Position numbers and translations under genes: made by a program. DNA of 34,655 nucleotides from a virus (taxonomy: Duplodnaviria > Heunggongvirae > Uroviricota > Caudoviricetes), in IMG/VR virus record IMGVR_UViG_2548876936_000010; one strand, written 5' to 3'. Shown here piece by piece: positions 4,882 through 11,792 of this stretch. Under the pieces are notes generated by a model. It was not told where the DNA came from and ran no database searches. It saw nothing but the letters and a program-made list of their open reading frames with translations. How positions within the stretch are numbered: position 1 is the stretch's first letter; every line of letters begins with the position of its first letter.

Positions 4882-5400
4882 TCACAGGCCGATATTGCGG
4901 CGGTGTTGCTCCAGCCGGTCGACGCCGTTCACCTTCTCAATCATGTTGATGGTGTCGATTTCGACCAGCTCCTTACCGTCCATCGTCAGCCGGAAATAGG
5001 TGCAGACCACGGAGATTTTCGACTCGGTGTCTTCTCCCTGTTTGCCCTCGCCGGTGTCGATTTCTTTCTGACGTCCACGCATGACCACCTCGACGGCCAC
5101 CGTTTCGCCGGTATCGTCGCGCTGGTAAGAGCCAGCAAAACGAATCGGCACGGCATCCACGCCGGTTGCGGCGTAAAGCTCCCAGATAACCGAATCCGGG
5201 AAGCCCCCGAGCGACCACTCCATTGACAGCGCATCGTCATCAAGGCCGAGGTCTACCGGTGCGCTGCCGTTCATCCCCGCACCGCGATAGTTTTCAAGCT
5301 TACGGGTCAGTTTTGGCAGCGTGACGGACTTTGCAACGCCCTGATAGCTGTAGCCGTTCAGAAAGACGTTCATTAACTTGAGTTTGCGCGGCATTGCCAT
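4882..5400 (-). CDS. FII: Tail tube protein gpFII (172 aa)
   Basis: 172-aa ORF between FI and E; ATG at 5400; synteny and length as P2 FII. Confidence 0.85.
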   Translation of the reverse strand: MAMPRKLKLMNVFLNGYSYQGVAKSVTLPKLTRKLENYRGAGMNGSAPVDLGLDDDALSMEWSLGGFPDSVIWELYAATGVDAVPIRFAGSYQRDDTGETVAVEVVMRGRQKEIDTGEGKQGEDTESKISVVCTYFRLTMDGKELVEIDTINMIEKVNGVDRLEQHRRNIGL

Positions 5401-5412
5401 CGGTCAGGCTCC

Positions 5413-6603
5413 TTAATTGCTGTTAACCGAAGTGACCAGATTTGCCAGGTATTTATCGGTAATACGCTGGCGCAGGGTCAGGTTTTCGAGAGGAGGCACC
5501 GGTGTATAGTCGTAGTCGATATACAGTTTTCCGGCCTTGAGGGTTTCCGCATCGTTGGATTCTTCGCTGAACCAGCAGGTCGCATCCACGATATAGCCGT
5601 TTGTTTTCAGCTCACGGAATTTGGCATTAATGCCGTCAACGATGTCGCGAATCAGCGTTGCGGTGATGGGCTTATCCACAGCCCACATGTGCGCCTCAGC
5701 CATCGTGTCGGCCAGCACCTGCGCGGTGCGGGTGTAGTTTTCAAAGAGGAACAGCGGGTCATCAGAGCAGGTACGGTTACCCCAGAAGCGGAAACCGTCA
5801 CGGCGAATCAGCGTTGTGACGCCTGACTCGTTAAGCAGGTCAGCATCGGTGCCGGACTCCTGCAAATCCCAGAATACGGACGCGCTGATGCCGGTAACAC
5901 CGTTTACCCCGACGTTGGACAGCGTTTTATGCCAGCCCTGCTCCTGGTCGATTTTAGCGCGCAGACCCAGCGCACGGGCGGTGGCATACGCGGTGGCGGT
6001 GGTACTGGTGACCGTATCCCATGCGAGGAAATCCGGCCAGATGACCATCAGCTCACGCTGGCTGAAATTCTGGCGGTAGGCTTTCACCTCGGAAATGGTC
6101 TTACAGCCCCATGCGCTGATATATCCGAAAGCGCGCAGCTTCTGACAGACGGATGCCAGTGCAACAGCCACCTCTTTGGTATCCAGTCCCGGCACACCGA
6201 GAATACGCGGTTTAACACCGGTTACCGACTCCGCCGCCAGCAGGGCTTTTAGTCCGGTGTACTGACCGTTTTCGTCGGTGGTGCCGATGATATTGGAAAC
6301 GGTCTGCGCGAGTTTCGTTTCCTCGTCATCACCGGTGCCGTCTTCCACGCGCACGACAACGGTGACCGGTTTTGACTGGTCAGCGATGGCCTGCAACGAT
6401 GCCGCCAGCGTGCCTTTTTTACCGGCCTTTGCAATTGCGCTTTGCACATTGGTAATCAGCACCGGTTTATTGAGGGGGAAGGTTTCCGCATCCGCATCGC
6501 TGGCCGTGCAGACCATGCCGACAATGGCAGTGGATACGGTGGAAATGACGCGGGTGCCGTCGTTAATCTCCAGCACCTGCACGCCATGATGATAGTCACT
6601 CAT
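5413..6603 (-). CDS. FI: Contractile tail sheath protein gpFI (396 aa)
   Basis: 396-aa ORF, ATG at 6603, first gene of the FI-FII-E-T-U-D block. Confidence 0.9.
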   Translation of the reverse strand: MSDYHHGVQVLEINDGTRVISTVSTAIVGMVCTASDADAETFPLNKPVLITNVQSAIAKAGKKGTLAASLQAIADQSKPVTVVVRVEDGTGDDEETKLAQTVSNIIGTTDENGQYTGLKALLAAESVTGVKPRILGVPGLDTKEVAVALASVCQKLRAFGYISAWGCKTISEVKAYRQNFSQRELMVIWPDFLAWDTVTSTTATAYATARALGLRAKIDQEQGWHKTLSNVGVNGVTGISASVFWDLQESGTDADLLNESGVTTLIRRDGFRFWGNRTCSDDPLFLFENYTRTAQVLADTMAEAHMWAVDKPITATLIRDIVDGINAKFRELKTNGYIVDATCWFSEESNDAETLKAGKLYIDYDYTPVPPLENLTLRQRITDKYLANLVTSVNSN

Positions 6604-6727: not shown

Positions 6728-6786
6728 GTCCTGATTTGTACTCACTCATTTTCCGCCTGACAATTTACATAGCCCAAATGCTATCA

Positions 6787-6802
6787 AATCTGACAGTCTG
6801 CT
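6787..6802. repeat. Left copy of 16-bp perfect inverted repeat aatctgacagtctgct bracketing the FI-G cargo island
   Basis: Exact reverse complement of 9220..9235; a related direct copy at 9092..9116. Confidence 0.8.
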
Positions 6803-6933
6803 TTGAGCGAAAAGTGGACATTAGAGTTACAAAAGCAAGTTTAAATCATCCAAAATATTACAATGTCCTTATCTATCTGATATCGTTATGATAAAAAGCT
6901 CCTGAATATAATCGATAGTAGGTGGTTATTTCC

Positions 6934-7311
6934 ATGAAATCAATTTTAGAGGTTTTTACTCAAGGAAATACTAAAGAAAAACTGGCTGTTATCGCCGATC
7001 TCACAACCATTGCGGGAATATCGATTGCAACTATTATTGCTGGTTTGTTAACCCTAGTTGCAAAAACAGATAAACTAGATGTTGGAAATCTGTTTGGAGT
7101 TGTCATAATATCTCTGCTCGGATTGGCTGGTGTTTGCTGTTTTGTGGCCTTATTTATTTGGGTTATAACCCAAATGTCTAAACCATGGGGAACACCTCGG
7201 GGGGTTCAGCCCTTAGTTAAGTGTGCTATTTCCCTTATCTTTATCTGTATGTTTTTGCTGGCTGTCTTTACATTTTATGAGTTTATTTCTTCGATGAGCA
7301 TACGCTATTGA
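6934..7311 (+). CDS. Small hydrophobic membrane protein (125 aa, about 3-4 predicted TM helices), function unknown
   Basis: ATG at 6934 preceded by aggtgg; long hydrophobic stretches (IAGISIATIIAGLLTLVA, VVIISLLGLAGVCCFVALFIWVI, ISLIFICMFLLAVFTF); AT-rich relative to flanking phage genes. Confidence 0.6.
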   Translation: MKSILEVFTQGNTKEKLAVIADLTTIAGISIATIIAGLLTLVAKTDKLDVGNLFGVVIISLLGLAGVCCFVALFIWVITQMSKPWGTPRGVQPLVKCAISLIFICMFLLAVFTFYEFISSMSIRY

Positions 7312-7333
7312 ATATAAAATCAGCCCCCATAAC

Positions 7334-7918
7334 TTAAAAGAGACCTTCTATATCGACTTCAATGCCCAAATAACGGACTGTGCTTTCCAGTTTCTTATGG
7401 CCCAACAGAAGTTGGATCACCCGGAGACTCTTGGTTTTCTTGTAGATTAAGTAAGGTTTTGTTCTTCTCATGGAATGTGTGCTGTACAGCGAATCTTCGA
7501 GACCAAGCTTTTCTACCCACCCATGAAAAATTCGGTTGTATTGCCGGGTTGATATATGGTGGTTAGTTCCGACCCGAGAGCGGAACAGGAAGCCTTTACT
7601 ATGCCAGTTACCGAGCTTTATCAATGCAGTAACCGCTTCCCTTGTCCCTTTGGTTATCTCAAATTGGACAGGGCTGCCGGTTTTCTGTTGCAACACCGTT
7701 GCTCTGCTTGAGACAGAACTGCCATATGCAGCATCTGATACTTTGAGTTTGACCAAATCACAGCCCCGTAGCTTAGTGTCCAAAGCCATGTTGAACAGAG
7801 CTAGATCGCGTGTTTTACCTTCCAACTCAAGTCTAATCCGGATCCCCCAGATATGAGATATCTGAAGTGGCCTTTTTTGACCGATGGTACGGTCTTTATT
7901 CCACGGTGACGTTTTCAT
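7334..7918 (-). CDS. Small stand-alone tyrosine recombinase (about 194 aa, catalytic domain only)
   Basis: ATG at 7918 preceded by AGGAGA; candidate catalytic residues present: R in KLRGCDL, K in QQKTGSPV, HSMRRT (HxxR), LLGHKKLESTVRYLG (H and Y); no N-terminal arm/core-binding domain. Confidence 0.7.
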   Translation of the reverse strand: MKTSPWNKDRTIGQKRPLQISHIWGIRIRLELEGKTRDLALFNMALDTKLRGCDLVKLKVSDAAYGSSVSSRATVLQQKTGSPVQFEITKGTREAVTALIKLGNWHSKGFLFRSRVGTNHHISTRQYNRIFHGWVEKLGLEDSLYSTHSMRRTKPYLIYKKTKSLRVIQLLLGHKKLESTVRYLGIEVDIEGLF

Positions 7919-8024
7919 ATTCAAATCTCCTGCAATGTGGGAGATTTGAGTATGGTTGTCTCTCAAGAGCGAAAATAAGTCAACTATTACTAGTTGTTGC
8001 GCATGTACGTATTCTGTCAATTAA

Positions 8025-8867: not shown

Positions 8868-8905
8868 ATATTTCTCCTGTTGTACAAGCTTCCATAAGTT
8901 GGCAG

Positions 8906-8911
8906 ATTATA
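8906..8911 (-). promoter_or_regulatory. Candidate -10 hexamer TATAAT about 38 nt upstream of the 280-aa gene start
   Basis: - strand reads TATAAT at 8911..8906; no good -35 found, so weakly supported. Confidence 0.25.
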
Positions 8912-9091
8912 CACTGAAGATTACCTATAAATAGCTGTGCGGGATAGCAGATCAGTGCAAGAAGTACAACCAAGTGAATGTGCGTATTCAGATACCTGGC
9001 CTAACGTTCGCGATAGCCGTCCCCTGCACGAAGCCATATATTAGATGTATTAGCTCAGACCTTATCTGACAGGTTGAGTAGGTAGAATCTA

Positions 9092-9116
9092 ATCAAAGCT
9101 GACAGTCTGGTTTGGA
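9092..9116. repeat. Direct-orientation degenerate copy (atcaaaGctgacagtctgGtttgG) of the left repeat
   Basis: About 22 of 25 positions match 6783..6807; a further partial copy atctgacag at 9064..9072. Confidence 0.6.
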
Positions 9117-9211
9117 CTGTGAGTTCAACCGATGGATGCAACACACAGCGATCTACGGACATTACTAGCATAGCTGTGTATTAATCATCGGGAAGCAGGT
9201 CAGTCCGCTCC

Positions 9212-9253
9212 TAGCACAGAGCAGACTGTCAGATTAGGCTTTACTCTGTGCTA
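9212..9253. repeat. 10-bp perfect inverted repeat (tagcacagag / ctctgtgcta) enclosing the right 16-bp repeat copy (9220..9235)
   Basis: Arms at 9212..9221 and 9244..9253; 9220..9235 agcagactgtcagatt is the exact reverse complement of 6787..6802. Confidence 0.75.
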
Positions 9254-9287: not shown

Positions 9288-9815
9288 TTATTGCGGCATT
9301 TCCGGCCATTCAGGATTTGCAGGATCCACACGGCTGACCAGAACACTGTAGCGTTCCCATGCTTCCAGTCGGCTACGCTCCTCATCTGTTGCCATATTCA
9401 GTCTGACAGAGCGTTCCAGTGGCTGAATGATAGTTTCAGCTTCGGAACGCAAAGCTGACTTCTGTAATTCCGCCAGTTGCAGCTGTTCGTCTGCCGTATA
9501 AATCCGCTTAATCACGGCACCATCCTTAAACATCCATTTACCTGAGTCATCAGCACGTCGGTTGGCGGTAATATCAGGAACCTCGACAACGCTAAAACCT
9601 TCAGGGTTGAGCGTTGAAGCATCTCTGGTGATGCCGACAATTATATTATTCTCATCGTAAACAATCTTTATCGTGTCTTCCTGAAAATTACTTACTTCCT
9701 CATACCAGTTTTTTCCCTCTTCGGACCATAACCAGATAACATCAAAATTTTTTGTCAGTTGATATTGGGCAACAGTTTTTGGATTACCCGCAGTAATATT
9801 TTTTAAATGCTGCAT
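9288..9815 (-). CDS. G: Tail fibre assembly protein gpG (175 aa)
   Basis: 175-aa ORF immediately downstream of H; ATG at 9815; length as P2 G. Confidence 0.8.
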
Positions 9816-9818
9816 AAA

Positions 9819-11792
9819 TTACACCTGTGCGACGTTATACCATGTGCCATTGATGTATTTTTGTATTGGTCTGAATACTGCGGGGTCATCACCATCGACT
9901 TCACCGACAATACCAAGCCCGGTAATTACGTGCCCTGCTTTCTCATACATCACCCCTTTCTGCATGGTCTGGACAACACGTGTGCCAAGTCTGACATCTC
10001 TCACATAGCGGGAATCAAAGTTACCGTAATCCGAGGGATTAACACGCCCCGTAATATTTATGGTTTTATTACTTTGAACGCTTCCGGAGACAAAGCGCAT
10101 AACATGGACGCTATTAGCATAAACATCCAGATTACCATCACCATTTTGTTTAAAGCCCGTGTCATTATCACCCAAAACAATCGAATTACCGCCAAGAGCA
10201 CTGGATGTTCCTATACCCAGAGCACCATTCAATTGACCACCAGATAATGATAACGCCCCAACATCAGCAGCAGTCGGTTTAATGTACGAACTGTAAATTA
10301 CATATACAGTTCCATCTGTCAGGCCTGTTGGTTTATTCGCTGTATAAGTTGGTGATGTATGAATCGTTACGCTGGCGTTACTGGTATAATCCCACTGAAT
10401 ATTAACACCTGTGGCGTAATTACCTATTTCAACATAAACATCATAGGTATCACCGGATGTATTCACCCATGCAAAATTAGTAAATCCAACCGATGTCCGT
10501 CGCCATAACGCACCAGTAAGACCTTTTGGATTTCCATTTCCCGCACGAAGAACAAGTTCAGATATACCAGCCTGCATAGGGGAGTTAACATTATATCCGG
10601 CACCACCAATCAGGCTTATGTAAACCACGGAACTGGCCTGGGGCATGGTTACAGTTGCCAGCCTGAACCATCCTGTACCACCACTAAAAGACATGGTTGT
10701 TGAATTTGTTGCTCCAATATTGCGCAGGAATAATCTTTTATCAGGAATATCCGCACCGTTCTGATCTTTCTGAAGACGTTTTTCAGCATTGTCATAGGCA
10801 GACTTCACCGCTTTTGGTGTTGCGGCCAGTGTTTCAGAATCACTGTTGGTGGCGCTACTGAGCTGAACAAGCCCTTTTCGCGCTGTGGTGGCATCCTGTG
10901 CAGTGTATTTCCCGTTAGCAAGGTCATACGCGACCTTTACCGCCTTTGGCGTTGCGGCCAGCGTTTCAGAATCGCTGTTGGTGGCGCTACTGAGCTGAAC
11001 AAGACCTTTTCGCGCTGTGGTGGCGTCCTGTGCAGTGTATTTCCCGTTAGCAAGGTCATACGCGGCCTTTACCGCTTTTGGTGTTGCGGCGAGCGTTTCA
11101 GACGTGCTGTTGGTGGCACTACTGAGTTGGACAAGACCTTTTCGCGCTGTGGTGGCATCCTGCGCAGTATATTTCCCGTTAGCAAGGTCATACGCGGCCT
11201 TTACCGCTTTCGGCGTTGCAGCCAGTGTTTCAGACGCGCTGTTGGTTGCACTGCTTAACTGAGTAAAACCTTTTGCGGTCAGCGAGGCGTCCGGGTGACG
11301 TCGTGACTGTTCATGCTCTGCAATTTTGTCATCAACGTAATCCTGCGTTGCCATCACCGTTGTGGTGTCAATGGTCAGCTCCACTGAGGCCACACTGCTG
11401 ACGATGATGACCATGCGGCAGGTCTGCGAACGCCCTGAGCCTTCGGCAAGAGCGGGTTTATAACTTTCAGCCATGTTCGCCACGGCAATTAGCGTTCCCG
11501 CATCATCGTACAGGCCAAGCTCACGCATCCAGAAACCGCCCACCTCCGGCGGAATAACCAGCTCTGCGATAATATAATTACTGTTTCGTTTGTCCTGGCT
11601 GATTTTGTTCAGCGCATGTCGCCAGACTTCGCGGATAAGCCCGGTCTGTCCGGCATCCGGGACAGGCAATTTACCACCGCCATCCCCGACGGCCATCGTG
11701 GTAATGTTGACCTTCCGCCCTCCCGGTGCGGTTGCCGCTGCCAGCTTTGCTGCACCGGCAGTGGTGATAACGGTTTTGAATTTTGTGCTCAT
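9819..11792 (-). CDS. H: Tail fibre protein gpH (657 aa) with internal 44-aa tandem repeats
   Basis: 657-aa ORF; N-terminus MSTKFKTVITTAGAAKLAAATAP...; repeat KGLVQLSSATNS.SETLAATPKAVKAAYDLANGKYTAQDATTAR; Gly/Ser/Thr-rich C-terminal half. Confidence 0.9.
   Translation of the reverse strand: MSTKFKTVITTAGAAKLAAATAPGGRKVNITTMAVGDGGGKLPVPDAGQTGLIREVWRHALNKISQDKRNSNYIIAELVIPPEVGGFWMRELGLYDDAGTLIAVANMAESYKPALAEGSGRSQTCRMVIIVSSVASVELTIDTTTVMATQDYVDDKIAEHEQSRRHPDASLTAKGFTQLSSATNSASETLAATPKAVKAAYDLANGKYTAQDATTARKGLVQLSSATNSTSETLAATPKAVKAAYDLANGKYTAQDATTARKGLVQLSSATNSDSETLAATPKAVKVAYDLANGKYTAQDATTARKGLVQLSSATNSDSETLAATPKAVKSAYDNAEKRLQKDQNGADIPDKRLFLRNIGATNSTTMSFSGGTGWFRLATVTMPQASSVVYISLIGGAGYNVNSPMQAGISELVLRAGNGNPKGLTGALWRRTSVGFTNFAWVNTSGDTYDVYVEIGNYATGVNIQWDYTSNASVTIHTSPTYTANKPTGLTDGTVYVIYSSYIKPTAADVGALSLSGGQLNGALGIGTSSALGGNSIVLGDNDTGFKQNGDGNLDVYANSVHVMRFVSGSVQSNKTINITGRVNPSDYGNFDSRYVRDVRLGTRVVQTMQKGVMYEKAGHVITGLGIVGEVDGDDPAVFRPIQKYINGTWYNVAQV
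10791..11276. repeat. About 3.7 in-frame tandem copies of a 132-bp unit inside tail fibre gene H
   Basis: Unit starts ccgc(t/c)tttgg at 10807, 10939, 11071, 11203 (period 132 bp), near-identical copies. Confidence 0.85.

Follow-up and report, generated by a model that had tools for sequence, protein, structure and literature searches.

Several described systems each share part of their organisation with the locus analysed here. Integrons combine a tyrosine recombinase with polarised arrays of ~0.4-5 kb cargo, divided by imperfectly palindromic separators of ~60-70 bp, and the arrays reported below have this layout together with a similar cargo spectrum (GNAT, glyoxalase, NUDIX, transporters, anti-phage systems). 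In contrast to integrons, the recombinase here is 200 aa long, lacks an N-terminal domain and scores far below cutoff in the IntI models; each junction is a pair of conventional double-stranded core sites with two spacer types, whereas attC is a folded single-stranded site; cargo lies on either strand; and the recombinase gene is located inside a junction. An attC-like reading of the junctions, with an R''/L''...L'/R' order and GTTRRRY cores, was rejected, as the 66-bp elements consist of two 24-bp double core sites, and no attI/Pc platform was seen at these loci.

The pdif modules of Acinetobacter plasmids are cargo segments moved by XerC/XerD and bounded by inverted pairs of core sites with 6-bp spacers. 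As in that system, the modules here are discrete, the sites alternate along the replicon, and modules are common to several replicons. The differences are a dedicated small recombinase gene between the sites in place of the host Xer pair, a site sequence unrelated to dif, two spacer classes, and a distribution that includes prophages and chromosomal islands as well as plasmids. The FimB/FimE invertases resemble the recombinase in size and catalytic-domain-only architecture, but in their family models the recombinase stays far below cutoff; the sites also differ, an invertible promoter element is lacking, and none of 36 carriers of the present cargo has it inverted. In recombinase-mediated cassette exchange, engineered lox or FRT sites with incompatible spacers flank a replaceable segment, which favours its swap over inversion or deletion. 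The same arrangement of two incompatible-spacer sites around a replaceable segment is found here in a natural setting, with an enzyme activity that is putative.

The P2 Z/fun region itself has a history. According to a review (PMC8987985), the Z/fun inverted repeats and the idea of site-specific exchange between phage and bacteria are already known from Nilsson, Karlsson and Haggard-Ljungquist (2004), who proposed it. For the exchange of hotspot cargo, cos-end recombination has been offered as speculation (Rousset et al. 2022), and transposons, homologous recombination and illegitimate recombination have been named with no decision among them (Moura de Sousa et al. 2026). The supplements of Rousset et al. 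(2022) do not include the hotspot proteins of this locus among those given, and the open-access full text contained no description of the recombinase family, the 24-bp L/R sites or the arrays. Here, the P2 Z/fun inverted repeats (AJ512683, AJ512685) are resolved into 24-bp L and R cores and tied to a recombinase family and its arrays. The comparative data suggest, with a probability of about 0.65, that the recombinase gene of this prophage is a truncated, stranded 'cassette recombinase' and that its family swaps cargo at L/R sites, including the borders of the P2 hotspot.

A truncated recombinase gene in the Z/fun hotspot of a P2-like prophage

The window, meaning the whole 34,655-nt stretch of DNA that was analysed, is a P2-like prophage. 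Its tail tube and tail sheath genes are located at 4882-6603 on the minus strand, and its tail-fibre genes G and H at 9288-11792. The FI-to-G interval is AT-rich (34-47% GC, vs 51-61% in the tail tube and sheath genes) and is the Z/fun cargo hotspot of P2. When the hotspot was compared with phages by BLAST, similarity was limited to its borders, which are the 'left/right inverted repeat' annotated in GenBank AJ512683 and AJ512685. On the minus strand, the order is R site, DUF5677 cassette, decayed L site, recombinase, the position of a deleted R site, membrane-protein cassette and L site (Table 1). The three hotspot proteins fall in no named recombinase subfamily of NCBIfam, and PADLOC 2.0 returned zero matches for the recombinase, the DUF5677 protein and the membrane protein. 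The tail-fibre gene H (9819-11792, minus strand) contains four tandem units of ~44 aa (...KGLVQLSSATNS.SETLAATPKAVKAAYDLANGKYTAQDATTAR...) and is annotated as frameshifted in E. coli PCN033.

Table 1. Coordinates of the hotspot features in the window.
Feature	Position	Strand	Description
L-type core site, FI-gene border of hotspot	6796..6819	-	GTCCACTTT-TCGCTC-AAAGCAGAC on minus strand; arms 17/18 matched
Second cassette, small membrane protein	6820..7352	+	RefSeq CDS 6934-7311; also fills the hotspot of another P2 prophage, E. coli NQ3
Recombinase gene, 194 aa	7334..7918	-	codons 1-189 (7352/7353-7918) are family sequence; last 5 codons and stop (7334-7351) come from the neighbouring cassette
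Deletion breakpoint	7350..7354	.	7352/7353 junction, 1 nt ambiguous; three-way alignment with E. coli NQ3 and Buttiauxella L020, BLAST end points
Leader hairpin of recombinase	7916..7954	-	pairs Shine-Dalgarno and AUG with upstream complement; family-wide
Decayed L-type core site of recombinase module	7958..7981	-	GACTTATTT-TCGCTC-TTGAGAGAC; outer arm 6/9 to consensus; L020 has the same decayed site
DUF5677 cargo gene, 280 aa	8025..8867	-	one travelling cassette with recombinase
Non-coding leader of DUF5677 cassette	8868..9202	-	holds fossil copy (9066-9123) of P2 FI-side flank and partial site
R-type core site, G-gene border of hotspot	9203..9226	+	GTCCGCTCC-TAGCAC-AGAGCAGAC; arms 18/18 matched

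The first-pass annotation had proposed that a 228-aa ORF conceals a shorter recombinase with an intact active site, and on these points it is confirmed. The 194-aa ORF begins at an internal ATG (7918-7916, minus strand) with AGGAGA at 7931-7926, 7 nt upstream, and ends with TAA at 7336-7334; RefSeq gives identical coordinates in E. coli PCN033 (WP_001591842.1, 'tyrosine-type recombinase/integrase'). The start M-x-T-S-P-W-N-K is conserved in ~70 homologues, so the 194-aa start is correct. The TTG-start 228-aa ORF is an artefact: it is not conserved and reads through an unrelated upstream site. On alignment with XerD, the catalytic residues correspond to R51, K79, H148-x-x-R151, H174 and Y183, six positions without variation in the alignment of the family. 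We agree that the product is a catalytic-domain-only tyrosine recombinase of ~200 aa, separate from the integrase of the prophage.

The protein belongs to the tyrosine recombinase superfamily by its match to Pfam PF00589 (E=1.5e-17, 64.4 bits, cutoff 27.1). The HMM assignment to a subfamily that the first-pass annotation had suggested as a check gave none, as the XerA/C/D, FimB/E-type and integron integrase models all score far below cutoff. The XerC/XerD equivalog models reach 42.6 and 25 bits (cutoffs 335 and 330) and cover the catalytic domain alone, and the IntI profiles TIGR02249 and NF011946 reach 17.8 and 17.9 bits (cutoffs 265 and 435) with a match restricted to the last ~70 residues. 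For the FimB/FimE-type invertases, NF007370 scores 13.8 bits (cutoff 221) and NF007371 22.3 bits (cutoff 222). The earlier description of the protein as FimB/FimE-like thus stands for size and domain content but not for family. The closest PDB match is the XerD catalytic domain (E=2.6e-5). An AlphaFold2 model built from a low-diversity alignment of 12 sequences has a mean pLDDT of 36.

The leader hairpin of the gene (7916-7954, minus strand) has 12 predicted pairs, two of them with compensatory changes, and is similar to the fold-back inhibition by which IS transposase genes are protected against read-through transcripts. Its position over the recombinase Shine-Dalgarno sequence and AUG suggests that translation is normally held low.

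The window copy is truncated at its 3' end. It ends GIEVD-IEGLF, and the invariant family tail ...DDALEISESIEV is absent. In a three-way alignment, a deletion joins non-coding DNA of the membrane-protein cassette to codon 189 of the recombinase, with loss of 11 invariant codons at the 3' end, of the hairpin downstream and of the R-type site. A divergent module end was considered as the source of the odd C-terminus and dropped, since the alignment shows a simple deletion fusion. The family pattern of an intact upstream L site and a downstream hairpin and R site is therefore missing from this copy. Because the upstream L site is decayed, in Buttiauxella as well, DUF5677 and the recombinase now move as one cassette.

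Six non-synonymous and 5 synonymous changes fall on the window branch, counts that are small; among them, S48T, L105W, D109G and N164S affect positions that are at least 90% conserved in the family. Taken together, the 3' deletion, the decayed L site and the substitutions lead us to judge the window recombinase weak or inactive. With every catalytic residue intact and an open ORF in 36 genomes, it may nevertheless have kept some activity. The first-pass annotation had named a degraded remnant with a non-conserved start as one finding that would count against it. This is borne out in part: despite its conserved start, the gene lacks its 3' end through deletion, has lost its own sites and is substituted at conserved positions. 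On alignment evidence, this copy is more likely a 3'-truncated, stranded relic of cargo arrival than an active enzyme.

L and R core sites of the recombinase module and of the hotspot borders

A protein search with the window recombinase gave ~8000 relatives. More than 100 among the matches listed are 72-96% identical and nearly all are 200 aa long; they come from Enterobacterales, Idiomarina, Cycloclasticus and others. For comparison of flanking DNA, 80 loci were taken from contigs, with one genome per species. Most encode 200 aa with an MxTSPWNK start and the invariant end GIEVDDALEISESIEV, and ~15 are frameshifted or truncated. Intact family members are frequent, and 876 of 5426 E. coli genomes carry recombinase-like DNA of 88-90% identity. 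In E. coli Nissle 1917 (L105:11841-16132), an intact 200-aa protein, WP_001305361.1, is encoded in a four-cassette array of a CP4-like island, where it adjoins an 'ETEC_3214 family protein'. A 202-aa variant with identical flanks is found in several genera (L078, L079, L080 and L089, 5995-6603); in this variant, Leu replaces Arg just before the catalytic Tyr (TVLY vs TVRY). The flanks of alphaproteobacterial homologues at ~50% identity (Sulfitobacter, Acetobacter, Rhizobium) showed no clear equivalent L/R sites.

Comparison of these loci defines the recombinase module. In Proteus, the same recombinase is present in at least four unrelated contexts whose common DNA is only ~700 bp, and in ~70 loci from many genera homology ends abruptly at the inverted ends of a module of this size. 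The left end reads (AAC)GTCCGCTYY-TCGCTC-ATAAGGGAC...ATG; the right end runs from the stop codon through a hairpin to ...TGCCAGAAGCGGAC(GTT); and the two are mutual inverted repeats. Each site is modelled as a 24-bp core composed of the 9-bp arm GTCYGCTYY, a 6-bp spacer and the inverted arm. There are two spacer classes: TCGCTC in L, and TGGCAC or TAGCAC in R.

Conservation across the module is asymmetric about the spacer. It reaches ~100% in the spacer and everything interior to it; in the outer 9-12 bp the motif persists (70-98% per position), but these bases are locus-specific, and they depend on context even among Proteus copies that are 98-99% identical in four contexts. The inner arms of the module match the arm consensus poorly. 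A constant spacer and interior combined with a variable outer arm is the pattern predicted by crossover at the spacer.

The inverted repeats that the first-pass annotation had noticed around the recombinase are accordingly real and tied to it: the same sites flank the gene of this family elsewhere. If another recombinase, either host XerC/XerD or a phage enzyme, used these sites, the small recombinase would be passive cargo. Such an arrangement would fit the P2-like phages, most of which keep good L/R sites without a recombinase gene in cis, and the link between protein and site is comparative. What makes it quite improbable is that in 58 of the 80 gammaproteobacterial loci the gene lies exactly between two inverted core sites, L and R, in fixed orientation, whereas real cargo occurs on either strand. 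In addition, module, sites and leader hairpin are conserved together from Proteus to Idiomarina and Colwellia, and the L/R sites are, to our knowledge, not dif-like.

The same sites border the P2 hotspot. A search of the 34.6-kb window for GTCYGCTYY-N6-RRAGCRGAC with at most 2 mismatches finds 6796-6819 and 9203-9226 only, against 0.03 expected from shuffles. Seven P2-like phages have an L site at one border of the hotspot and an R site at the other. P2, Wphi, L-413C, vB_YpM_22, P2-EC58 and P2-EC67 have the same arm and flank on the phage side; on the cargo side the arm varies among them with the motif mostly kept, and similarity between phages stops at the spacer. In Yersinia phage vB_YpM_22 (L103:432-524), which has lost the usual P2 FI-side site by deletion, the FI terminator is joined directly to an L site, the leader and the first ~8 recombinase codons. 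Here a recombinase module has independently entered a P2-type hotspot and decayed.

Cassettes of the window are found in other genomes, with ends at these sites. Window 9226-7352 is 96.6% identical to part of a Buttiauxella chromosomal array (L020:4692-6567), starting at the R site. Window 6830-7352 is present at 96.6% identity in the P2 prophage of E. coli NQ3, whose hotspot has the order L, DUF6650, R.L junction, membrane protein, R, with a canonical junction. Identity between NQ3 and the window starts at the spacer and outer arm (GAGCGAAAAGTGGAC), and the inner arms are unlike. A close homologue of the P2-EC67 cargo protein (89% aa identity) lies 1 kb upstream of a recombinase module in two viral contigs.

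Within the DUF5677 cassette of the window, 9066-9123 comprises a 49-nt copy, 71% identical to the P2 FI-side flank (6757-6805), and then a partial site (GTCTGGTTT / GGAC). This stretch is wholly present in the Buttiauxella array, so the DUF5677 cassette may have visited a P2-type hotspot earlier.

The association of DUF5677 with the recombinase raises the question of whether the two form a functional unit, such as an anti-phage system. The pair is adjacent and co-oriented in the P2 hotspot, the Buttiauxella array and a lambdoid prophage; defence genes are abundant in P2 hotspots; and one paper reports enrichment of DUF5677 beside serine recombinases in Bacillota. However, the DUF5677 gene assayed in that paper conferred no phage protection, and PADLOC has no match for either protein here. 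In the lambdoid prophage, an intact DUF5677 gene stands beside a frameshifted recombinase, which argues against an obligate two-gene system, and in the other 80-plus loci the recombinase is found beside unrelated genes. A two-gene unit is thus highly improbable.

The first-pass annotation had also suggested local DNA rearrangement, on the view that small recombinases usually act as invertases or resolvases. In its specific form, an active FimB/FimE-like invertase would work a switch by flipping the 2.4 kb that the inverted repeats enclose, and the ~200-aa protein without an N-terminal domain, its intact catalytic residues and the inverted orientation of the border sites would all suit such an enzyme. 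Tyrosine recombinases normally require matching spacers. Here, the border spacers TCGCTC and TAGCAC differ at 2 of 6 positions, so the two border sites should not recombine with each other, and the phage backbone and recombinase gene should therefore be neither inverted nor deleted. Consistent with this, the cargo is present in 36 of 5426 complete E. coli genomes and has the same orientation in all 36; no inverted copy was found in the 5426 genomes, and a cargo-only search returned the same 36. Together with the low scores of the FimB/FimE models, this makes the flipping of a local switch very improbable. In other phages these sites enclose unrelated cargo and homology breaks at the spacer, which points to replacement rather than flipping. 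The comparative data here favour cassette insertion and exchange.

Polarised cassette arrays and homology breakpoints

Beyond P2, paired L/R sites divide cargo in polarised arrays of prophages, islands, ICEs and plasmids. A 15-nt motif of arm and spacer, derived from the same loci, has 500 matches at 13/15 or better in 1.08 Mb of loci; a shuffle control gave 23 matches for 40 loci, or ~46 when scaled to the full set. With the recombinase gene set to the plus strand, L sites number 203 plus and 9 minus, and R sites 211 minus and 9 plus. The sites form 58 L-recombinase-R modules and 52 'empty' L..R junctions of 62-67 bp. The modal empty junction is 66 bp, composed of a 24-bp L core, 18 bp and a 24-bp R core, with AAC/GTT triplets outside the arms.

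The segments between junctions (n=155, median 1355 bp) give cargo units of 0.4-5 kb. They hold 272 ORFs in 225 clusters, with 139 on one strand and 133 on the other and hence no strand bias. Pfam matches of the cargo include GNAT acetyltransferases, MFS transporters, regulators, hydrolases, glyoxalase and NUDIX, and PADLOC matches include Septu, SIR2-HerA, CBASS, PD-T4-2, PD-T4-3, Ppl, PARIS-like AriA and GmrSD.

The settings of these arrays are diverse. In addition to the P2 hotspot, the putative cassette system is seen in a lambdoid prophage and in Proteus prophage loci by Mu-like baseplate and lambda-like tail-tip genes. In Proteus L012 and L019, Mu-like baseplate, tail-fibre-assembly and serine invertase genes come after the cassette region; in L016 and L019 (2544-3023, 8001-8603), a partial 159-aa and a full recombinase copy bracket cargo with a TIR-domain gene. 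In L004-L011 (8001-8603; marine metagenome contigs, Cycloclasticus-type MAGs), the recombinase lies between arsenic-resistance and copper/cation-efflux operons. The setting there resembles a conjugative element with an IS4-family transposase adjacent, and only the R site is well preserved.

Homology between loci breaks at the sites. Of 1298 internal breakpoints, 46% fall at most 15 bp from a spacer, compared with 1.5% expected. When alignments that touch the recombinase are left out, 22 of 80 breakpoints (27.5%) are near a spacer, compared with the same 1.5% expectation and a maximum of 7.5% in 300 randomisations.

These data also bear on an alternative in which the recombinase module would be a transposon of IS type ending in terminal inverted repeats, the 66-bp junctions its MITE-like deletion derivatives and the 'cassettes' simply the DNA between insertions. 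Inverted ends of ~15-24 bp in many contexts have this appearance, and the empty L..R elements resemble internally deleted copies. Independent insertions would not, however, give the single polarity per locus that is seen relative to the recombinase gene, and whole cargo blocks are common to arrays and end at spacers. The outer arm goes with the neighbouring cargo and not with the module, and no target-site duplications are visible in the end alignments inspected. We therefore regard a transposon as unlikely.

A candidate mechanism of cassette exchange

The position of the recombinase gene, the polarity of the sites and their co-occurrence argue for this family as the probable catalyst of exchange at L/R sites. 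If so, strand exchange would take place inside the spacer, pairing L with L and R with R. Excision would release a circle of cargo plus junction from an array; the circle could then insert elsewhere at a site of the same type; and two crossovers would swap a whole cassette. In the phage, the backbone would topologically hold the place between L and R that the recombinase gene holds in its own module. The NQ3 hotspot, with two cassettes and an R.L junction, matches the predicted product of circle insertion at a P2 border site. The hotspot of the window would likewise represent an array of two cassettes, in which a later deletion damaged the central junction that carries the recombinase. Present-day exchange at its two intact border sites would require an intact family member in trans. 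As far as the comparison of loci goes, the window recombinase and its sites suggest a clue to how P2-type hotspots swap cargo genes.

A broader proposal, to which we give even odds on comparative grounds, is that these loci represent an undescribed integron-like cassette system, Gammaproteobacteria-wide, built from a 200-aa recombinase and 66-bp heterospecific junctions, with the P2 tail hotspot as a dock and the window gene as a fossil. If real, such a system would carry defence and accessory genes into prophage hotspots, genomic islands, ICEs and plasmids and swap them among these.

If this reading is true, the P2 tail hotspot would serve as the dock of a site-specific system dedicated to cassettes, for which the 24-bp sites are defined and an enzyme is proposed, and the question of how cargo is exchanged in the defence hotspots of phages and satellites would become directly testable. 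It would account for identical cargo in phages, islands and plasmids of different genera. The L/R signature would locate cassette borders and, with them, new accessory and defence genes, and for cassette exchange the family could offer a recombinase of very small size together with heterospecific sites found in nature.
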